Origin: an uncultured Chloroflexia bacterium
GTDB taxonomy: Bacteria > Chloroflexota > Dehalococcoidia > GIF9 > UBA5629
Direction of reading: 5' to 3'
NCBI GenBank assembly: GCA_963848815.1
Contig: CAWKFY010000033.1
Span: 23,959 to 87,958 of the forward strand
Length of the DNA stretch: 64,000 bases
The position numbers and the translations under genes were made by a program. Positions 9,621-18,853 of this stretch are shown one piece after another. Each line of letters begins with the position of its first letter. Position 1 is the first letter of the stretch. The notes beneath the pieces are model-generated. The model did not search any database. It was not told the DNA's origin and saw nothing but the letters and a program-made list of their open reading frames with translations.

Positions 9621-10487
9621 TCACTTCCCGGTCAGCCCATATAGCTTGTGGTAGGCAGCTTCGAAGCCGGGGTCGGCTTCGGCCAGGCGATTTCTGATCT
9701 CTTTCATGTTCCCGGCGAACTGCCGGCCATCTTTCTTATTAACCAGGTCGAGCCAGCGGCCGGCCTTCTCCGTAAAGAGCTTCTCGATCTTAGCCACGCC
9801 CGGCAGGTTCATCTGAAGGGATGAGTAGAACTCGGGGTCCTCGGAGGCGACGCTCTCGGCCATAGTCAGGAGCAGCCTGTAGGTCGTGCCGCTTACCACA
9901 GCCGACTCTTTGATCCTGTCCAGCTCCAGCAGCGTGTCGGCGGTCACCAGGCCTATAAAATGCGACAGCCCCAGCACGATGCTCATGATCTCGTCATGCT
10001 CTGCCGGGGACATCACGGCCACCTTCGCCCCCCGCTCCTCCAGGTATTTCCTCACCTTGGCGGCCGTCTCCTCCTCGGCTTTGCCGGTGGGAGTCAGTAC
10101 GAAGCGTTGACCGGCCAGGCCGTCGGCGCCGGGACCGAACATGGGGTGCACGCCCAGCACCGAGCCTTTATTAATATATTTATGCATGACCTCCACAGGC
10201 ATGGCTTTGATCGAGGTTACGTCGAAGATAAGCTGCCCTTGACGTATATAAGGCGCGATCTCACTGACGATCTGCTCGAATTTATCGATGGGGATCGAGA
10301 GTATTACCGCATCGGACGTTTCCACGGCCTCCCTGCTGGAGGCGTATTCAGCACCCAGCCTCTCCGCCGTTTCCCGCAGCTTTTCCCGGTCGCGGCCGGC
10401 GATCACCACCTGCCTGCCCTCCCCGAGCAGGAAGCGGGCCAGCCACTGCCCCATCTTGCCGTATCCGCCGATAATGGCAACCTTCAT
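9621..10487 (-). CDS. tyrA: Prephenate dehydrogenase
   Basis: N-terminal Rossmann motif 'VAIIGGYGKMG', a 'GVHPMFGP' block and position as last gene of the aro operon. Confidence 0.85.
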   Translation of the reverse strand: MKVAIIGGYGKMGQWLARFLLGEGRQVVIAGRDREKLRETAERLGAEYASSREAVETSDAVILSIPIDKFEQIVSEIAPYIRQGQLIFDVTSIKAMPVEVMHKYINKGSVLGVHPMFGPGADGLAGQRFVLTPTGKAEEETAAKVRKYLEERGAKVAVMSPAEHDEIMSIVLGLSHFIGLVTADTLLELDRIKESAVVSGTTYRLLLTMAESVASEDPEFYSSLQMNLPGVAKIEKLFTEKAGRWLDLVNKKDGRQFAGNMKEIRNRLAEADPGFEAAYHKLYGLTGK

Positions 10488-10502
10488 GCTGAGTGCATTA
10501 TA

Positions 10503-11576
10503 TCACTGTGGCTTGGCCCTGGGATATGATCCCAGCACCTTCAAGAATGTGACGTGCTCCTTGAGCTGCTCGAGCGCCTCCTGAATGTTGGGGTCCTTGC
10601 GGTGTCCCTCGAAGTCCAGGTAGAAGTTATATTCCCAGGGCTTCTGGCGCGTGGGGCGCGACTCAATCTTGGTAAGGTTGATGTTGCGGTCGGCGAAGAT
10701 CTTGATGGCCTCGTAAAGTGTGCCCGGCTTGTGCGCCAGCAAAAAGACCACCGAGGTCTTGTCGCTGCCGGTCTGGGGAGAATCTTTACCGCTCAGGATG
10801 AAAAAGCGGGTGGTGTTGTTGGGGTTGTCCTCTATCTCCCGCGCCAGTATCTTCATATCGTAAATCTCGGCGGCGGTGGCGCTGGCGATGGCCGCGCCGT
10901 CCATGATCTTCTCGTCCTTGATCATCTTGACGCTGCCCGCCGTGTCGTAGGTGGGTATCACTTCATAGCCCATGCGCTTGAGAAAGCCCTGGCTCTGCCC
11001 CAGCGCCTGCGGGTGTGAATAGACCTTCTTGACCGTCTCCAGCGTGGCGCCCTTATTGGCGATCAGGCAGTGCGTGACCCTGACCTGGGTCTCGCCGCGT
11101 ACCATGACGTCGGAATCGAGCAGTAAATCATAGGAGCGGCTGATGCTGCCGACCTGCGAGTTCTCCACGGGGATGATGCCGTAGGGCAGCGTGCCCTCCT
11201 GCACGGCGGCGAAGACCTCTTCCAGCGTGTCGAAGGGACCGGTCTCGACCGAGGGGCCGAAGAAGCCCATGGCGGCCTCCTGGCTGTAGGCGCCCGGCTC
11301 TCCCTGGAAGGCCACCTCCATGCCCTGTATGCTTTTGGAAGCCTTGATGACCAGCTTGTAGATGCGGTCCATGTCCTCGGGGTTGAGTCCCTCCTTTTTG
11401 GCCAGCTCCCTGACGTTCCTGAGCACCTGCTCCTCGCGGGCCTTGTCCTCAATGGGGCGCTTGCTCTCTTTCTTCTCCCGCCCGATCTCGTTGGACAGCT
11501 TCTGCCGCTGCGACAGCAGCTCGATAACTTTGATATCGATGTCGTCGATTAACTTTCTGGAATCGTGTATGCTCAT
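10503..11576 (-). CDS. pheA: Bifunctional chorismate mutase / prephenate dehydratase
   Basis: Chorismate mutase helix region, then a PDT domain ('AFQGEPGAYS', 'TRF') and a C-terminal ACT domain ('ESRP'). The likely start MSIHDS at 11576 overlaps the aroC stop as ATGA. The track ORF extends further 5' to 11675. Confidence 0.9.
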   Translation of the reverse strand: MSIHDSRKLIDDIDIKVIELLSQRQKLSNEIGREKKESKRPIEDKAREEQVLRNVRELAKKEGLNPEDMDRIYKLVIKASKSIQGMEVAFQGEPGAYSQEAAMGFFGPSVETGPFDTLEEVFAAVQEGTLPYGIIPVENSQVGSISRSYDLLLDSDVMVRGETQVRVTHCLIANKGATLETVKKVYSHPQALGQSQGFLKRMGYEVIPTYDTAGSVKMIKDEKIMDGAAIASATAAEIYDMKILAREIEDNPNNTTRFFILSGKDSPQTGSDKTSVVFLLAHKPGTLYEAIKIFADRNINLTKIESRPTRQKPWEYNFYLDFEGHRKDPNIQEALEQLKEHVTFLKVLGSYPRAKPQ

Positions 11577-12664
11577 TTCAGCACCTCTTTTATCAGTCCC
11601 GCCCTCATGGCGAAATCGCACAGGACCAGCTTCATCATGGCCGCGGCCACCGGCGCCGCCCTGGGCACGATGCAACTGTCATGCCTGCCCTTGATCGATA
11701 GATCGACCTCTTTGCCCGCCTTGAGGTCAACCGACCTCTGCTTTACGCTGATGGAGGGCGTGGGCTTGACGGCGATCCTGGCTACGATGGGCATGCCGTT
11801 GCTGATGCCGCCCGAAATGCCCCCCGCATTGTTGGTCAGCGTAACAACCTTTTTATGCTTAAGCATAAATATATCATTATGCTGCGAACCTTTCATAGTT
11901 GCCGAGGCGAAGCCCGAACCGAACTCCACCCCCTTTACAGCAGGTATGGCGAAGAAGGCTTTGGCAAGGTCGCCTTCCAGGGTGTCGAAAACCGGTTCGC
12001 CCAGTCCGGCCGGCACGTCCAGCGCCATGACCTCGATTACGCCGCCGATGCTGTCGCCCGCCTTCCTGACCTTCTCAATGAGCCTGATGATTTTTAAAGC
12101 CGCATCAGGGTCGGCGCACCTGACGGGATTTTTATCCACGGTCTTTTTTATATTGGCGGGCGTTTGCGGCGAAGCCTTTATGTCCCCTACCTGCACCGTA
12201 TGGGCCAGCACCTCGATGCCCAGCCTCCCGAGCAGCTTGCCGGCCACGGCCCCCGCCATGACGAACCCGGCCGTGATGCGGCCGGAGAAACGTCCTCCGC
12301 CGCGGAAATCGTTATATCCGCCGTACTTGAGCCAGGCCGTGTAGTCGGCATGGCCCGGACGTGGTACAGCCTTTAAACTCTCATAGGCTGAGGAATCGGT
12401 ATCGCGGTTGCGTACCAGCAGGCAGAGCGGCGCGCCGGTAGTAGTGCCGTTGAAGACGCCGGAGAGTATCTCCACGAGATCCTTCTCCCTGCGGGCGGTG
12501 CCCCCGGCGGCCGGCATGGGCTTGCGCCGGTCGACCTCTTTTTGAATCTCAGCGGCGGCCAGCGGCAGGCCGGCCGGACAGCCGTCCACGATGACGCCGA
12601 CGCATTCGCCGTGGCTCTCGCCGAAGCTGGTGACAACGAATATCTTACCCAGGCTATTTCCCAT
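11573..12664 (-). CDS. aroC: Chorismate synthase
   Basis: 363 aa and intact, with the motifs 'FGESHG', 'RPGHAD' and 'RHDSCIVPRA'. Confidence 0.92.
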   Translation of the reverse strand: MGNSLGKIFVVTSFGESHGECVGVIVDGCPAGLPLAAAEIQKEVDRRKPMPAAGGTARREKDLVEILSGVFNGTTTGAPLCLLVRNRDTDSSAYESLKAVPRPGHADYTAWLKYGGYNDFRGGGRFSGRITAGFVMAGAVAGKLLGRLGIEVLAHTVQVGDIKASPQTPANIKKTVDKNPVRCADPDAALKIIRLIEKVRKAGDSIGGVIEVMALDVPAGLGEPVFDTLEGDLAKAFFAIPAVKGVEFGSGFASATMKGSQHNDIFMLKHKKVVTLTNNAGGISGGISNGMPIVARIAVKPTPSISVKQRSVDLKAGKEVDLSIKGRHDSCIVPRAAPVAAAMMKLVLCDFAMRAGLIKEVLK

Positions 12665-13915
12665 CTAAAATTACTTCACCTCCCATGCTTTTCAGGACGT
12701 CCCAGAACTCGGGCCAGGTCTTGGAGACGCATTCGGCGCCCTCTATTATGGTGTCGCCCGCCAGCACACCCAGGATGCTGAAGGCCATGGCGATGCGGTG
12801 GTCTCCCTTCGAATCTACGCGGCGCCCCTCAGGCGTCCGCCCATGATGAAAAGGCTATAGCGGCCCTCGCTCACGTGGATGCCCATGCGCTCCAGTCCCT
12901 CGCTGACGGCCGCTATCCGGTCGGACTCCTTGAGCCGGGCGCGCTCGATGCCGCTCAGCTCGCTGACTCCAGGCGTGGCCGCGCAAAGCGCCGCCACCGT
13001 GGGCAGCAGGTCGATGCAGTCGGAGAGGTCGGCCTTGAGCGGCTTCAAATCGGACTTTTTAACCGTGACTGAGTCGTGATCGGGATAGATATTGGCGCCC
13101 ATGCGTTTCATCAGGCTCAACAGGGCCGGTCGGCCTGGCGGCTTTCGATATTCAAATTGCCTACATTCGCCTCGCCTGCCACGGCGCCCAGCGCCAGCAG
13201 GTAGGATGCCGATGACCAGTCTCCCTCCACTCTGTAGCGTGGTGGGGTGATAGCTCTGCCGTTCTGCCGTGAAGCTGCGCAGCGTGTCGTCCGGCTTTAT
13301 TTTCACGCCGAACTCTTTCATGCAGTCCAGCGTCATCATGATGTAAGGGACCGACTCAGGCGGCGTGGTCAGCTCGATCTTCATTTGCTGTGGGGCCAGC
13401 GGCGCGATGAAGAGCAGGGCCGAAACGAACTGCGAGCTGATATCGCCCGGCAGGACGGCCGTGCCGCCCTTCAGGCCGCCCTCCACCGTCACGGGGGCCA
13501 TGCCCCTTTCAGATCGGCAGTTAACGCCCACCTGTTGCAGGGCCTCGACCAGCGGGCCGACGGGACGTCCGGCCAGCGACGGGCCCGGCCGTCAGCCGGC
13601 AGGCGCCCGGCACCAGCGAGCAGACCGCCGTCATGAAGCGCAGCGTGCCCGCCGAGTCCCGGCAATACAGGTCGGAGTCCGGCTTTTTAAAATGCCCGCC
13701 CTGTGACCAGCCAGGCATCGCTGCCGTCCTCGATGCCGACGCCGATCTTGCCCAGCACATCGCGGGCGGCCTCGGTATCGTCGGCAGGCAGGGGGCTGAC
13801 GATTTCGCTCGGCCTTGGCCAGTGCGGCGCACACCAGGCCGCGCAGCGTGTAGCTCTTGGAGGAGGGCGCTTTCACCTTCCCCTGTATGTTGCTCTTAGA
13901 TATGAGCGCCCGCAT
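12654..13915 (-). pseudogene. aroA: 3-phosphoshikimate 1-carboxyvinyltransferase (EPSP synthase), frame broken at >=6 sites
   Basis: Track ORFs 13631-13915, 13521-13832 and 12815-13531 plus an unlisted tail give a continuous EPSPS-like protein only after frame changes. The changes fall near 13806-13812, 13694-13702, 13578-13586, 13228-13236, 13124-13131 and 12824-12838. The restored C-terminus 'VDSKGDHRIAMAF...GGEVILDGK*' stops at 12654 and overlaps the aroC start. Confidence 0.85.
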
Positions 13916-14429
13916 TATTTCCTCCGCCGCTGTGCAATTTGATCCACGATATCCTGCACGGACAGGTCGGACGTGTCAACCGTAATATCGGCGGCGTTCT
14001 CATATAAAGGCCTGCGGTAACTTGAGAAGCTCCTGTACGGCCGCCGCCGGGTCGGGCACTTCCAGCAGGGGACGTTTTTCGCCGCCCCAGGCCACGCGCT
14101 TCAGCGCTACCGACGGCAGTACCTTAAGGTAGACGATATCGCATGTCTCTTTAAGCGCAGCGATATTGGCGGGGTTGAGCACGATACCGCCGCCGCAGGC
14201 GATGACGGCCCCCTTCTTCCCGGCCGCTTCCAGCGCTACCTCGGCCTCGATCTTGCGGAAGGCCGGCTCGCCCTCCTCCTCGAATATCTGCGGCAATGGA
14301 CTTGCGGCATTTCTCCGTAACCAGCGCATCGAGCTCGACGAACTCCATATTGAGACTGTCGGCCAGCGCCCTGCCTACGGCGGATTTTCCCGCGCCCATG
14401 AAGCCTATCAGGGCTATATTACTTTTCAT
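13915..14429 (-). pseudogene. aroK: Shikimate kinase, frame broken at 2 sites
   Basis: Walker A 'GFMGAGKS'. Track ORFs 14151-14429 and 14000-14329 plus a tail join with shifts near 14290-14297 and 14012-14022. The restored end '...DIVDQIAQRRRK*' overlaps the aroA ATG as TAATG. Confidence 0.85.
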
Positions 14430-15296
14430 GTCCCTTTCAGCGCCTCAACCGCTGCTTTCCTCATAATATCGACGGGGGCCTTATGGCCGGTCCATTTCTC
14501 GAAGGCCAGTGCGCCCTGCCAGACCAGCATGTCCAGCCCGTTGACTGTCGCAGCGCCGGCTTTCGCCGCCTCCTTCAGAAGCCGCGTTTCAACGGGGTTG
14601 TAAACTATGTCCACCACCGTATGCTGCGGCCCGATGAGATCGCCTTTGACCAGGGTCTCGTCCGGTTCGGGCGACATGCCCACGCTGGTGGTGTTAACCA
14701 GGATGTGGCCCTTTTTCAGGGCGGTTGTAATATTCTGCCGGTCTAAGGGCATGGCCTCAGCCGGGTGCCCGGCGGTTTTCATAATATCCCCCACCAGGCG
14801 GGCGGCCCTGCCCGACGTCCTGTTCAATATGATGAGCGCCACTCCTGCGGTGGATAGTGCGAAGCAGACTGCCCTGGCTGCGCCGCCCGAGCCGAGGATA
14901 ACCGCAGTCTTGCCCCTGACTTCGACGTTATGTTCTTTCAGAGCTCGCATGAAACCTTCGGCATCCGTGTTATAGCCTTTGAGCATACTGCTATCGTTGA
15001 TAATCACGTTCACTGCGCCGATGGAGCGTGCCGGAGGGTCTATCTCATCCAGCAGAGGTATGACTTTTACCTTGTAGGGGATGGTGACGTTGATCCCCCG
15101 GATACTGAGCGCCCGCATGCCCTGCACGGCGGCTGCCAGGTGCCTGGGTGGAACCCTGAACGGCAGATATGACATAGTCCAGTCCCAGCGCTTTGAAGGC
15201 GGCGTTGTGCATGGCCGGCGACACGGTATGTTCGACGGGGTCGCCGATGACTCCGCAGACCGTGGTCTTGCCGGTTATCTCGGGCCATGTGTTCAT
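14426..15296 (-). pseudogene. aroE: Shikimate 5-dehydrogenase, frame broken at 1 site
   Basis: The N-terminus '[34 protein letters not shown]' (inside track ORF 15045-15461) joins ORF 14426-15175 ('YLPFRV...NVTIPYK...GSGGAARA') with a shift near 15168-15174. Confidence 0.85.
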
Positions 15297-15946
15297 CCGC
15301 CAACCCCAGCAGCCTGCGCATGACTTCAGCCGGCACCTGGCCGGGTGCGGACTCTTTGCCACTCCCTGTGGAAGCGTAAGTAAAATAGCTGCCCGCCCAC
15401 GGCGACAGCACGCGGCTGAGCCTCCCCTCTGCGCCCATGGCGAAGGAAACGATCCTGGCACTGGGGAAGCACGCGGATAATTTCGAGCACGGGGATGTTA
15501 TCCTCGATCTTGACGGCTGTGGTCACAAGCTTGCAAATGTCGGCGCCGGCCTTGATCTGCCGACGTACTATGGCCGCCAGTTCATCCGTTGAGGGCGTGC
15601 CCTGCCAGTCATGGTGCGAGATGATGCATCTGGCCTTTTTTTTGATCTGTGGCACAATATCTTTCAGATCCTCGGCATTGAGCTCAATATCGATGATATC
15701 GGCGCCCAGATTGGCTGCCGAAAGGAGCTCCCTAATCCTGCCTTCCTCACCCGCCCTCCATTTTCCGTGCTCATTCACGCTGCGATTGGCGGCTATCCAG
15801 GGCTTTTTGAGCGCAGGTACGATCTCACGCCAGCCTTCCCCGATCATATCTATGCGTACCTCGAAGAGGTCGGCCAATCCGGCGGCGCTTTTAAGCGAAC
15901 TGACGTCATTGTCTGTTATAACCGTGCAGATCTTAAGTCTCTTCAT
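15293..15946 (-). pseudogene. aroD: 3-dehydroquinate dehydratase type I, frame broken at 1 clear site and probably a second
   Basis: ORF 15326-15946 loses homology after '[12 protein letters not shown]'. The continuation '[30 protein letters not shown]' is in the frame of ORF 15067-15438, with the shift near 15458-15468. The 3' end at 15293 is inferred from a TGA overlapping the aroE ATG, which needs one more shift near 15300-15325. Confidence 0.75.
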
Positions 15947-17027
15947 TGTTCCTCTCCAACACTTCTATAGCCAGCGCAAAACTTACATCTTCGGAGATGA
16001 AGACCTTGCCTATCGAGCGCGGCAGTATGAAACTGCATTTTACCGTTGTGCACTTTCTTGTCGTGCTCCATGGCCTTGATCACCCTGGCCATGTCCAGGC
16101 GCGGCACGGCCACGGGCAGCCCGGCCGCCAGCAGCAGGTTTTTCAGCCAGGGCCAGCTCTTTGGCCTTGAAGATGCCGATCTTATTGGAAATGACGCAGG
16201 CCGTGACCATGCCTATGGCTATGGCCTGGCCGTGCTTGATCCTGAAATCGGAGGCGGACTCGATGGCATGGCCGATGGTATGGCCGAAATTGAGTATATT
16301 GCGCAGGCCGGTGTCCTTCTCGTCCTTTTCGACGATGGCGGCTTTGATGGCGGCCGACCTGACTACGATCTCCTCCAGCAGCAAGTTATCGAAGGAACGG
16401 ACCTTGTCCAGGTTTTTTTCCAGCAGGCTGAAGAAAGCCCTGTCCCGGATAACGGCGTACTTGATAACCTCGGCCAGGCCGTTGCTGACCTCAATGTGAG
16501 GCAGGCTGTGAAGCGTGAGGGTATCGGATACGACCAGCAAGGGCTGATGAAAGACGCCGATATTGTTTTTAAGCGGGCCGTGGTCGACCGCGGTCTTGCC
16601 GCCGATGCTGCTGTCAACCTGCGCCAGCAGGGTGGTGGGCAGCTGTACCAGCGGGCAGGCCGCGCATATAGGTGGCGGCCACGAAGCCGGCCAGGTCGCC
16701 GATAACTCCGCCGCCCAGGGCCAGCATGGGGGTCGTGCCGCTCGGCGTGGACCGCCTGCAGGCCCGCATAGAGTTTGGCGGCGGTATCCAGCGACTTATG
16801 CTCTTCGCCTTCCGGGACCAGCAGCAGTGCGGGTTTGAAACCCGGCCTTGTCCAGCGACCGCTTGAGTATAGTCGCCGTACAGCCTGTCGACGATGGGAT
16901 TGGTGATGATGACGGCCTTATCCGGAGGGCAGCATCGCCTCAGCCATATGCCTACCTGCCCGAGCAGGTCCCGGCCTATGCGGATGTCGTAGCCCCTTCT
17001 GCCAAGCCTGACCTTGACTATCCTCAA
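15933..17027 (-). pseudogene. aroB: 3-dehydroquinate synthase, frame broken at about 6 sites
   Basis: The conserved blocks 'ALGGGVIGDLAGFVAATYMRG', 'LVQLPTTLLAQVDSSIGGKTAV', 'NFGHTIGHAIE' and 'LPRSIGKVFISEDV' lie in different frames. Shifts fall near 16855-16866, 16835-16845, 16728-16735, 16650-16658, 16138-16145 and 16027-16033. The 3' end is approximate. Confidence 0.85.
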
Positions 17028-17042
17028 CCTGATCGGCCCACC

Positions 17043-18113
17043 TTATTGGCTGCCCGCCCGGCCTGCAACCATCTGATGGATTTCCCGGCAGGCCTTTATT
17101 ATATCCTGTAGCTCGCCGGTGTAATGGTCTGCCGGCCGTCCACGATGGCCTCCTGCGGGGTTGTAGTGCGCTTCGATCATCAGCCCGTCGGCGCCGGCGG
17201 CGATGGCGGCGCAGCTCATGCTGAATATCAGGTCGCGGCGGCCGGTGGCGTGGCTGGGGTCGACGATGACCGGCAGGTAGGTCTCCTTCTTCATGACGGG
17301 CACGGCGGCCAGGTCGAGGGTGTAGCGGGTGAATTCCCTGCCCTTGCCCACGGGCACGATGCCGCGCTCGCACAGGATGATGTCCTTGTTGCCCTCGGCG
17401 GCGATATATTCGGCGAAGGAGAGGAATTCCTCGATGCCGGCGCCGAAATGCCTTTTGAGCAGGACGGGCTTGTTCTTCTTGCCCACCTTGCCCAGCAGGT
17501 CCTGGTTGTACATATTGCGGGAGCCTATCTGCAGTATATCGACATATTCGGCGGCCAGGTCGACGTGGTCCTCGCCCCTGACCTCGGTGACGACCGGCAG
17601 GCCGAACTCTCGTCCGGCGTCGCGCATCCATTTAAGCGCCTGTTCGGCGCTCTTGCGGTCGGTGCCGCCCACGCCCTGGAAGGAATGCACCGAGCTGCGG
17701 GGCTTGAAGATGCCGCCCCTCAGGATGTGCGCGCCGGCTTTCTTAACGGCCTCGGCTATCATGAACAATTGCTTCTTGTTCTCCACTGCGCAGGGGCCTG
17801 CCATGATGATGGGCTCGCCGTTGCCGATCTGGAGGTTGCCTATCTGGACGGGCTTGCGTTCCTCGCCTTTCTCGCCCGTAGCCCGGCCGTACTCCCGGCT
17901 GATGAGTTTATATGGCGTTTCGATTTTAATCACCTCCTTTACGCCTGGCAAGACTGCTAAATGATCGAAAGGGACGTTACTCTCGTCGCCGACCAGCCCG
18001 ATAACGGTCCTAAAATCGCCGCGGGAGACATCGGCCTTGAGGCCGTAATGCCGTATCTCCTTGACGATGCGCTTGATATCCTCGTCTGTTGCGTCGCGTT
18101 TCATGATCATCAT
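17043..18113 (-). CDS. aroF: DAHP synthase (type I-beta) with an N-terminal ferredoxin-like regulatory domain; about 13 C-terminal codons are out of frame
   Basis: 356-aa ORF with a KDSA/DAHPS core ('IMAGPCAVE', 'KPRSS', 'IVDPSH'). Between about 17115 and 17155 the listed frame reads 'AGGHRGRPADHYTG', while the +1 frame reads the family-typical 'EAIVDGRQTITP'. That indicates two compensating indels. RBS AGGAGG at 18124-18129. Confidence 0.88.
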   Translation of the reverse strand: MMIMKRDATDEDIKRIVKEIRHYGLKADVSRGDFRTVIGLVGDESNVPFDHLAVLPGVKEVIKIETPYKLISREYGRATGEKGEERKPVQIGNLQIGNGEPIIMAGPCAVENKKQLFMIAEAVKKAGAHILRGGIFKPRSSVHSFQGVGGTDRKSAEQALKWMRDAGREFGLPVVTEVRGEDHVDLAAEYVDILQIGSRNMYNQDLLGKVGKKNKPVLLKRHFGAGIEEFLSFAEYIAAEGNKDIILCERGIVPVGKGREFTRYTLDLAAVPVMKKETYLPVIVDPSHATGRRDLIFSMSCAAIAAGADGLMIEAHYNPAGGHRGRPADHYTGELQDIIKACREIHQMVAGRAGSQ

Positions 18114-18142
18114 TGCTCGTGTACCTCCTGAAATTTTAGTGT

Positions 18143-18179
18143 ATAAAAAGAGAGGAGCCCTCCGCTTGGAGGGCTCCTT
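18143..18179 (-). terminator. Intrinsic terminator of the aro leader (attenuator terminator)
   Basis: On the minus strand GGAGCCCTCC-aagc-GGAGGGCTCC (18177 down to 18154) is a perfect 10-bp GC-rich stem followed by TCTCTTTTTAT. It sits about 30 nt upstream of the aroF start. The plus strand also reads as a hairpin followed by TTTATTTT. Confidence 0.7.
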
Positions 18180-18205
18180 TATTTTGCTACTTCTTTACTT
18201 ACTTC

Positions 18206-18307
18206 TTATCTGGAACCGGGTGCGCTGCACCTCTCCCCAAGCCTATCGCAGGGCGTAAAAAACCAGTAATAGAAGTAAAAGCTTTGAGAGGCTATGCAGT
18301 TTTCCAT
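18206..18307 (-). CDS. Aromatic-rich leader peptide (33 aa) of the aro operon
   Basis: MENCIASQSFYFYYWFFTPCDRLGERCSAPGSR, with eight consecutive aromatic codons (TTT TAC TTC TAT TAC TGG TTT TTT) at 18257-18280. No clear SD. It is below the ORF-track cut-off. Confidence 0.6.
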   Translation of the reverse strand: MENCIASQSFYFYYWFFTPCDRLGERCSAPGSR

Positions 18308-18379
18308 ATCAGTAGATAAGATTAACATAGAAAAAAACGGCTGTCAAAATCCGGCTACAAAACGGTAATTATACGCACA

Positions 18380-18853
18380 TCATGTAATCAGGACGTTTTT
18401 GGGCGACGGGTGCTCTTTGATTAGGGCTTCCATTATTTCCACGGCGTCCCGGACGAAGGGCGGGCAGACCGTGCGGAAAAGCCCCAGTTTGCGCACCTCG
18501 AGTAGTGTCTGGCGGTTGCTGATGTCATAGCCCAGCAAGTCCCGGCAGACAACGGTCTTGTGCCTGGCCTTAAACCGCTGCAGGAACTCGCCCACCAACT
18601 GGTAGGTGGCCTCGTTGGATGAGAAGGGGTCTTCGGAAGACATGCCGTAGTGAAGTCCGAGCGCCATGATTGCGCCGGAGACGGCCCCGCAGGTCTCGGC
18701 CATGCGGCCGATTCCGCCGCCGAAGCCGGCAGCGATCTTCTGCGCATTGATAATGCTCAGCCCGTAATCGGCGGCGAAAGCAGACAGCACAGACTGCGAA
18801 CAATTGAAACCTTTCTTAAAGGTGGCTACGGCCTTTTCAGATTTTTCACTCAT
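18380..18853 (-). CDS. C_GCAxxG_C_C family redox protein
   Basis: 'FNCSQSV', 'ETCGAVSGA', 'VVCRDLL' and 'TVCPPF' reproduce the family Cys pattern. Confidence 0.8.
   Translation of the reverse strand: MSEKSEKAVATFKKGFNCSQSVLSAFAADYGLSIINAQKIAAGFGGGIGRMAETCGAVSGAIMALGLHYGMSSEDPFSSNEATYQLVGEFLQRFKARHKTVVCRDLLGYDISNRQTLLEVRKLGLFRTVCPPFVRDAVEIMEALIKEHPSPKNVLIT

Follow-up and report, generated by a model that had tools for sequence, protein, structure and literature searches.

In Corynebacterium glutamicum, a leader peptide with a Phe-Tyr-Phe motif (aroR) is encoded upstream of aroF, and ribosome stalling on this leader enhances read-through, which is higher under Phe limitation (Neshat et al. 2014, as cited in PMC11802643). 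On functional grounds, aroR-aroF appears to be the closest analogue of a candidate regulatory element in a 64,000-nucleotide (nt) stretch of DNA, called the window below, whose source is an uncultured member of the Dehalococcoidia (Chloroflexota). The element lies on the minus strand between an upstream gene and aroF, the first gene of a nine-gene aromatic operon, and consists of a short open reading frame (ORF) with eight consecutive aromatic codons, an intrinsic terminator and strands predicted to pair in alternative ways. A first-pass annotation of the window had proposed such an attenuator and had pointed to a Corynebacterium leader upstream of aroF, which PMC11802643 documents. The likeness is one of function: an aromatic leader precedes the gene for 3-deoxy-D-arabino-heptulosonate 7-phosphate (DAHP) synthase, and the run in the window also begins F-Y-F. 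The two differ in phylum (Actinomycetota versus Chloroflexota) and in codon number (three in aroR versus eight here, in a family that is Tyr dominated and usually contains Trp). In addition, the operon here comprises the whole common pathway plus pheA and tyrA, and its DAHP synthase has a ferredoxin-like N-terminal domain. These differences in phylum, enzyme architecture and operon content suggest that aroR and the Dehalococcoidia leaders arose independently and converged.

Other described leaders share parts of the design. The enterobacterial pheL-pheA leader (Rfam RF01859, Phe_leader) also combines an aromatic-codon leader peptide, alternative hairpins and an intrinsic terminator, but its codons are Phe only, it controls pheA alone and it belongs to gammaproteobacteria, whereas a Tyr/Phe/Trp mix precedes aroF here and pheA is the eighth gene. 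In Escherichia coli trpL, a stalled ribosome masks region 1 and pairing of regions 2 and 3 antiterminates, while regions 3 and 4 otherwise form the terminator; the same scheme can be drawn for the window, although trpL has a start led by a Shine-Dalgarno (SD) sequence and reads one amino acid, whereas the start here is probably leaderless and three amino acids would be read. Leaderless leader peptides have been identified by RNA sequencing in Streptomyces lividans (trpL1, leuL and ilvL) and are cited for Corynebacterium too (PMC8079986). As is predicted for the window element, transcription of those of S. lividans begins at a short regulatory ORF, with hairpins and a U-stretch downstream, but they comprise 12 to 29 codons with one to five regulatory codons for Trp, Leu or Ile/Val, and none is aromatic-mixed or lies before an aro operon (PMC8079986). 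According to a 2010 survey, leader-peptide attenuation was then known only in Proteobacteria and Actinobacteria, and the survey itself added Firmicutes (PMC2965389). In the literature searched, leader-peptide attenuation was not described for Dehalococcoidia or Chloroflexi; surveys in subscription journals lay outside this search, and an earlier computational prediction is possible. Anaerobes of this class abound in sediments, peat and aquifers; most are uncultured, and to our knowledge almost nothing is known of their gene regulation. We know of no functional leader-peptide sensor established for tyrosine. The mechanism proposed here is textbook, and what is apparently undescribed is the phylum, the mixed and Tyr-dominated run, control of a whole-pathway operon and the probable leaderless start.

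The element is best read as a ribosome-mediated (leader-peptide) transcription attenuator controlling the aroF-aroB-aroD-aroE-aroK-aroA-aroC-pheA-tyrA operon, to which we assign a probability of roughly 85%. The case is built on a predicted promoter, the ORF, its codon run, three alternative helices with covariation and the spacing among them. The steps that we infer are translation of the ORF, stalling, kinetic competition between helices and a response to amino acids. Transcription would start at a conserved sigma-70-type promoter a few nucleotides before the leader ATG, and a ribosome would initiate on the leaderless or near-leaderless 5' end. A shortage of charged Tyr-, Phe- or Trp-tRNA would stall the ribosome within the eight-codon aromatic run, where its footprint would cover the 5' strands of two anti-antiterminator helices: P1, whose 5' strand precedes the run, and hairpin H, which closely follows it. 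The G-rich strand GCUUGGGGAG, just past the leading edge of the ribosome, would stay free and capture the 5' arm and loop of the terminator once these are transcribed; with the antiterminator formed, the terminator would not form and RNA polymerase would continue into aroF. With aromatic tRNAs charged, the ribosome would continue to the stop codon. Behind it, H and P1 would fold again and take up the G-rich strand; the 11-bp GC terminator would then form and transcription would end at the U-tract. Tyr and Phe are the most likely signals, given the predominance of their codons and the position of pheA and tyrA at the end of the operon. A Trp codon, usually only one, may also make the switch sensitive to the third product of the common pathway. 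Attenuation would be layered on a presumed allosteric control of DAHP synthase via its FXD domain.

Orthologous leaders were collected with the AroF protein as the query against a collection of species-representative genomes, which gave 58 loci. The top matches (78 to 90% identity) are metagenome-assembled genomes (MAGs) of uncultured Dehalococcoidia (Chloroflexota) from fen, peat and lake sediment, and a second group, also Dehalococcoidia, matches at 58 to 71% identity. The set used below comprises 46 Dehalococcoidia leaders, including that of the window, at 58 to 90% AroF identity; locus L022 was kept among them despite a weak aromatic run. Alignment A1 contains the 28 close-clade leaders, and base pairs were counted in it helix by helix.

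The first-pass annotation had drawn attention to a 266-nt gap upstream of aroF and, within it, to a mini-ORF at 18307-18206 whose codons 10 to 17 read TTT TAC TTC TAT TAC TGG TTT TTT. Reading of the minus strand bears out both, with the gap extending from the stop of the upstream gene at 18380 to the aroF start at 18113. The aromatic run exceeds chance. Windows of eight codons with at least six aromatic residues occur only twice in the six frames of the 64 kb, once in the leader and once antisense to the leader's own downstream spacer (at 18182). Of 45 Dehalococcoidia loci, 41 have such a window in the 350 nt preceding aroF, versus a chance expectation of 0.018 per 350 nt derived from the rest of the same loci. 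Comparison of aroF orthologs, which had been proposed as a check, recovered the run in these 41 loci, together with hairpins that carry compensatory changes (see below).

Across the 46 leaders, the run is 85% aromatic (175 Tyr, 108 Phe and 35 Trp), and Trp occurs in 38 of the leader peptides. Its codons vary: TAT and TAC are exchanged, as are TTT and TTC, the order of Phe, Tyr and Trp is permuted, and an Ala codon embedded in the run appears as GCC, GCT, GCG and GCA. Lineage variants include FYAYYWFF, YYFYAYWF, WFYAYYYF and WYAYYFYF and, further, YYYFYYYFFW, WYYYYFIF, FWGYFYY and YYYYIYMY. Start and stop codons are retained among ORFs of 18 to 37 codons, and the 33-codon length is identical in the window and its four closest relatives (L001, L002, L004 and L046). 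Because the aromatic class is kept while nucleotides change, the mini-ORF is regarded as conserved as a coding feature, and its pattern of variation fits coding constraint. Directly past the run, the codons ACG CCC GGC hardly vary in A1, even at their third positions, which points to constraint at the RNA level; they form the 5' arm of hairpin H.

Ala (GCN) occupies codon 12 in 25 of the 27 remaining close-clade leaders, but the window has TTC (Phe) there (18272-18274). The two-nucleotide change from GCC to TTC accounts for the eight unbroken aromatic codons of the window. Locus L021 has TTT at the same position, an independent replacement.

Downstream of the ORF, a terminator hairpin GGAGCCCTCC-AAGC-GGAGGGCTCC had been described, followed in order by CTCTTTTTAT, an AGGAGG ribosome binding site and the aroF ATG at 18113. 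This order is correct, and the hairpin is present with 11 bp, counting an extra A-U pair, and a predicted energy of -23.1 kcal/mol. A terminator hairpin was found in all 46 leaders, in 45 of them with a U-tract, and its helix is 91% paired in A1 with five compensatory pairs. On the plus strand, too, this hairpin (18151-18180; 13 pairs) scores as a terminator, with ATTTTGCTAC after it. The A-rich spacer of the minus strand is probably the whole reason for this score, since no convergent plus-strand gene convincingly ends at 18151-18180.

The antiterminator had been proposed to form between GCTTGGGGAGAGG (18242-18230), starting 14 nt past the last aromatic codon, and CCCTCCAAGC, the 5' arm plus loop of the terminator. 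Both the position and the pairing hold in the window, with eight contiguous pairs including one G-U, then a mismatch and then a G-C pair. In A1, the helix of 18242-18233 with 18173-18164 is 91.8% paired versus 68% with the partner shifted by one column, and none of 500 shuffles reached its covariation score. Three compensatory pairs (CG/UA; columns 70/153, 71/152 and 72/151) all involve nucleotides of the terminator loop, and since the terminator helix does not constrain its loop, this covariation is specific to the antiterminator. Furthermore, the loop covaries with its partner across clades (AAGC:GCUU, AGGC:GCCU, AGAC:GUCU, CCCCAG:CUGGGG and CUGAGU:GCUCA). The duplex can be formed in 46 of 46 leaders, with a median of -18.8 kcal/mol and z scores below -2 in 38, and RNAalifold without a given structure returned the antiterminator as the consensus. 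As predicted, the terminator and antiterminator helices are mutually exclusive.

The ORF, terminator and antiterminator of the first-pass architecture are real and conserved, but the anti-antiterminator (H plus P1), predicted to be disrupted by the stalled ribosome, had been missed. Hairpin H starts 3 nt past the last aromatic codon in the window (0 to 3 nt among the leaders), its 3' arm coincides with the start of the antiterminator strand, and an equivalent hairpin of unrelated sequence is found in 45 of 46 leaders. P1 (18298-18286 with 18235-18226) brackets the codon run in the close clade and has four compensatory pairs. Taken together, the helices of the OFF state (P1, H and the terminator) are 85% paired in A1, with 10 compensatory pairs. 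Region 1, which is a single region in E. coli trpL, would here be split around the run into P1 upstream and H downstream.

The spacing of these elements is compatible with the dimensions of a ribosome. Across the 46 leaders, the antiterminator strand begins a median of 13 nt (range, 7 to 18) past the last aromatic codon, which is about as far as the front of a ribosome stalled at the final codons of the run would reach. In the clade of the window, the stop codon lies 17 to 26 nt beyond the antiterminator strand (region 2), 19 nt in the window itself, and this differs from E. coli trpL. In distant clades the distance is only 2 to 9 nt, and a terminating ribosome would therefore sit on region 2, as in trpL.

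Folding of the full leader at equilibrium was dropped as a test of the switch, since attenuation is decided before the 3' arm of the terminator exists. Folding was instead performed on a transcript ending at the terminator loop, with the positions under the ribosome (A site -15 to +13) barred from pairing, and was scored as the probability of capture of the terminator 5' arm by the antiterminator strand. In the window, this probability was 0.01 without a ribosome, 0.84 to 0.98 with the A site on codons 10 to 14 and 0.28 to 0.37 on codons 15 to 17. It was at most 0.01 with the A site on codons 2 to 6 or 21 to 33 and 0.00 with the ribosome at the stop codon. Permissive positions are limited to codons 7 to 20, in agreement with the location of the aromatic run. 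Of 45 orthologs, 43 exceeded 0.5 at some stalled position and 34 were below 0.3 with the ribosome at the stop codon. A masking experiment in silico had been suggested at the outset, and it yields the predicted switch (from 0.01 to 0.84-0.98) once the kinetically relevant shortened transcript is folded. Geometry, covariation and masked folds thus agree with the original proposal that a ribosome stalled on the aromatic run would free the antiterminator. The companion proposal, that a ribosome reading to the stop codon melts the antiterminator and lets the terminator form, is retained in its outcome (antiterminator probability, 0.00) but not in its means: in the window, where the stop codon is 19 nt past the strand, H and P1 would re-form instead, and only in distant clades would the ribosome lie on the strand itself.

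The leader is preceded by a putative promoter. An exact TTGACA, a spacer of 17 to 18 nt (17 in the window) and a TAnnnT -10 box constitute the best promoter match in 43 of 46 leaders. The -10 box of the window ends 11 nt before the leader ATG, which predicts a 5' untranslated region of approximately 4 to 6 nt; in the close clade this distance is 7 to 11 nt in 25 of 28 loci and, by eye, 7 nt in two more. Distant clades have 16 to 47 nt between the -10 box and the start codon, with GAGG or AAGG motifs in about half. The leader transcript therefore probably begins at or within approximately 5 nt of the AUG, and translation is probably leaderless or near-leaderless. The mini-ORF had been noted to lack an obvious SD sequence. 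This is correct for the window ATG, and the conserved promoter offers an explanation, because it sets the transcription start at or near the ATG and so implies leaderless initiation.

Two sequence motifs were observed near this promoter. An AT-rich palindrome, TATAATTA, lies at 18366-18373 (minus strand), 18 nt upstream of the -35 box and just past the stop of the upstream C_GCAxxG-like gene (18853-18380). Similar motifs (CGCATAATTATAGC) are found upstream of the promoter, at a different distance, in the clade of L009, L012, L013, L015 and L043; the palindrome could be an UP element, the -10 box of a second promoter or an operator. In L006, L008 and L010, a short repeat with CTCGCAATGAC / GTCATTGCGAGGAGC is located just upstream of the leader promoter, and another copy occurs approximately 1.3 kb away in L008 (L008:1300-1440). 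This repeat is absent at the leader of the window and looks like a dispersed repeat or an element resembling a miniature inverted-repeat transposable element.

Several observations weigh against the attenuator. The analysis is computational throughout. The antiterminator of the window is weaker than those of its relatives (-13.9 kcal/mol; z, -1.7; GGGGAGAGG versus GGGGGGCG), and P1 has moderate support, with helix 1 paired in 88% and helix 2 in 64% of A1. Translation of the window ORF, whose ATG has no SD sequence, depends on the proposed leaderless initiation, and the leader of L014 starts with GTG. The operon of the window contains frameshifts, and this copy may be error laden or decaying. 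Full-length equilibrium folding gives terminator probabilities of approximately 0.9 to 1.0 in most leaders, whatever the mask, so the choice between ON and OFF must be kinetic. The E. coli trp terminator is likewise more stable than its antiterminator, and the choice there is kinetic. Finally, only 24 of 45 naked orthologs had an antiterminator probability below 0.3; the antiterminator is predicted without a ribosome in about half, and a default OFF state ("superattenuation") is therefore not universal at equilibrium.

A real attenuator could also be operated by a different sensor, i.e., a riboswitch, a T-box-like tRNA sensor or an RNA-binding protein, with the ORF incidental. Terminator, antiterminator and anti-antiterminator would suit any attenuation sensor, the window ORF has no SD sequence, and T-boxes are reportedly present in Chloroflexi. 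This is nevertheless improbable, since the run is kept as an amino acid class rather than as nucleotides and invariably shares its frame with start and stop codons, the range of permissive stalling matches the run, and SD-like motifs precede the ORF in distant clades. No conserved unpaired RNA element, such as a ligand pocket or specifier loop, was seen outside the switch helices, and a T-box or riboswitch was rejected as a candidate, with no such family matching the window at an E value of ≤10 (17900-18600) and none reaching the gathering score in 20 orthologous loci.

Alternatively, the ribosome may be the sensor but arrest may be caused by the nascent aromatic-rich peptide and/or a free amino acid in the exit tunnel, for which the Trp-sensing TnaC is a precedent, rather than by uncharged tRNA. 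The residues F-T-P-G directly after the run are kept in the close clade, and Pro-containing motifs are common in arrest peptides. These residues differ beyond the run between clades (TPG, WRS, WGY and ERP), however, and the near-invariance of ACG CCC GGC is accounted for by the 5' arm of H, which places the constraint on RNA rather than on peptide. Moreover, arrest triggered by an abundant amino acid would turn a biosynthetic operon on amid plentiful product, which is the wrong logic, and arrest of this kind is given as little weight as a sensor other than the ribosome. Least credible of all is a functional aromatic-rich micropeptide with its own terminator and a separately transcribed aroF, the elements being nonregulatory: the ORF is conserved and is followed by a strong terminator, but the terminator lies only approximately 40 nt from the aroF ATG, an interval that has no promoter-like site on the aroF strand of the window, the peptide diverges freely except in aromatic class and at positions constrained by RNA pairing, a covarying antiterminator has no role in a plain gene with a terminator, and linkage to aroF is strict over 45 loci.

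Ribosome stalling when charged aromatic tRNA is scarce is the preferred reading, and the leaders that would work in this way appear to belong to one family. A covariance model (R1) built from the close clade only scores 145 bits on the window leader and finds distant leaders on which it was not trained, at their assigned start codons (50.7 bits for L028 and 30 to 39 bits for L027, L030, L033, L039, L032 and L024), which argues that the Dehalococcoidia leaders are one family. Two kinds of R1 match were discarded: minus-strand matches in L007 and L008, which fall on an unrelated terminator separating the genes for a hydrogenase and a phosphate transporter, and antisense matches over the leaders, which arise from the palindromic terminator. 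R1 found no second copy of the element elsewhere in the window, and a scan that recovered the aro leader gave no other convincing leader-peptide attenuator in the 64 kb. Among the sampled loci, the element is confined to Dehalococcoidia, though it is not quite universal within the class. Three loci with aroF homologs have no aromatic leader: L041 (Dehalococcoidales STB_68; 59% identity), L044 (a Bathyarchaeia MAG) and L050 (a WOR-3 MAG).

The broader proposal, that the element represents an undescribed Chloroflexota family of leader-peptide attenuators, class-wide in Dehalococcoidia, in which one leaderless mini-ORF acts as a Tyr/Phe/Trp OR gate for the entire shikimate/Phe/Tyr supraoperon, with Tyr as the dominant signal and on top of allosteric control of the first enzyme, has in our estimation an even chance of being correct. 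No concept is overturned by the attenuator. It would provide Dehalococcoidia with a well-defined cis-regulatory RNA (46 examples, covariation, a working covariance model and nine aromatic-synthesis genes under control), extend leader-peptide attenuation to Chloroflexota, add a second and apparently independent aromatic leader before aroF after that of Corynebacterium, and suggest leaderless translation in a Dehalococcoidia lineage. The family could join Rfam, where it would correct calls of "hypothetical small ORF" or unannotated intergenic sequence in hundreds of MAGs.

None of 20 orthologous leaders matched an Rfam family at the gathering score. The only suggestive match on the window was RF01859 (Phe_leader), with a full-length alignment at 29 bits (E = 0.011) versus a gathering score of 55. 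Membership in Phe_leader was rejected on this score, and the aligned outer stem is not conserved beyond composition. Pairing of the codon run with the purine-rich spacer, which appeared in the naked minimum free energy (MFE) fold, in the Phe_leader alignment and as the antisense aromatic window at 18182, was likewise rejected as a functional helix: it is expected from composition, and the run-spacer duplex had a median z score of -0.1 relative to shuffles, with 1 of 46 below -2. This pairing explains the subthreshold Phe_leader match. The median purine content of the spacers is 69% across the leaders. In one distant Dehalococcoidales locus, L023:417-503 (minus strand) matches the Rfam pan motif (RF01749) at 48.1 bits, above the gathering score; it is located approximately 100 nt upstream of the aro leader and is unrelated to the attenuator.

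Table 1. Coordinates and basis of assignment of the leader elements and the putatively controlled operon
Feature	Positions	Strand	Basis
-35 hexamer, TTGACA	18342..18347	minus	best-scoring -35 in 43/46 leaders
-10 hexamer, TAATCT, preceded by TGT (extended -10-like)	18319..18324	minus	sequence and comparison
Leader ORF, 33 codons plus TAA (ATG GAA AAC ... TAA), MENCIASQSFYFYYWFFTPCDRLGERCSAPGSR	18206..18307	minus	sequence read; orthologous short ORFs in ~45 loci
P1 5' strand, UGCA..CCUCUC, codons 4-8; upstream half of putative long-range anti-antiterminator stem	18286..18298	minus	MFE folds, A1 pairs
Regulatory codon run (putative), codons 10-17, F Y F Y Y W F F	18257..18280	minus	sequence read; comparison of 46 leaders
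Hairpin H, CCCUGC-GAUAG-GCUUGGG; putative local anti-antiterminator ("1:2")	18236..18253	minus	93.5% of cells paired in A1
Region 2: G-rich antiterminator 5' strand GCUUGGGGAG (18242-18233), continuous with P1 3' strand GAGAGGUGCA (18235-18226)	18226..18242	minus	A1 pairing, per-leader duplexes
Stop codon and purine-rich spacer (82% A/G), apparently unstructured	18179..18208	minus	spacer comparison
Intrinsic terminator: 5' arm 18178-18168 (region 3), loop AAGC 18167-18164, 3' arm 18163-18153 (region 4)	18153..18178	minus	terminator scan, folding
U-rich tract after terminator, CUCUUUUUAU	18143..18152	minus	sequence read, terminator scan
aroF Shine-Dalgarno, AGGAGG	18124..18129	minus	sequence read; GGAGG invariant in A1
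Operon aroF-aroB-aroD-aroE-aroK-aroA-aroC-pheA-tyrA	9621..18113	minus	ORFs, Pfam

The gene content that the first-pass annotation had assigned to the operon is supported by Pfam, with matches for aroF, aroB, aroD, aroE, aroK, aroA, aroC, pheA (CM_2-PDT-ACT) and tyrA, and its products would be Phe, Tyr and their common precursor, chorismate. An additional N-terminal domain on the first enzyme had also been recognized; Pfam identifies it as DAHP_snth_FXD (ferredoxin-like), which we take to be the allosteric Tyr/Phe-binding domain known from the Thermotoga enzyme. Several genes of the operon are split by frameshifts within 12815-17027 (minus strand): aroB (17027-16614 and 16540-16040), aroD-aroE (15946-14426) and aroA (13832-12815). 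The splits in aroB, aroD/E and aroA represent either indel errors, which are typical of long-read MAG assemblies, or pseudogenization. In the relative L002, aroB (362 amino acids [aa]), aroD (222 aa) and aroE (289 aa) are intact, and the leader ORF of the window is unaffected.

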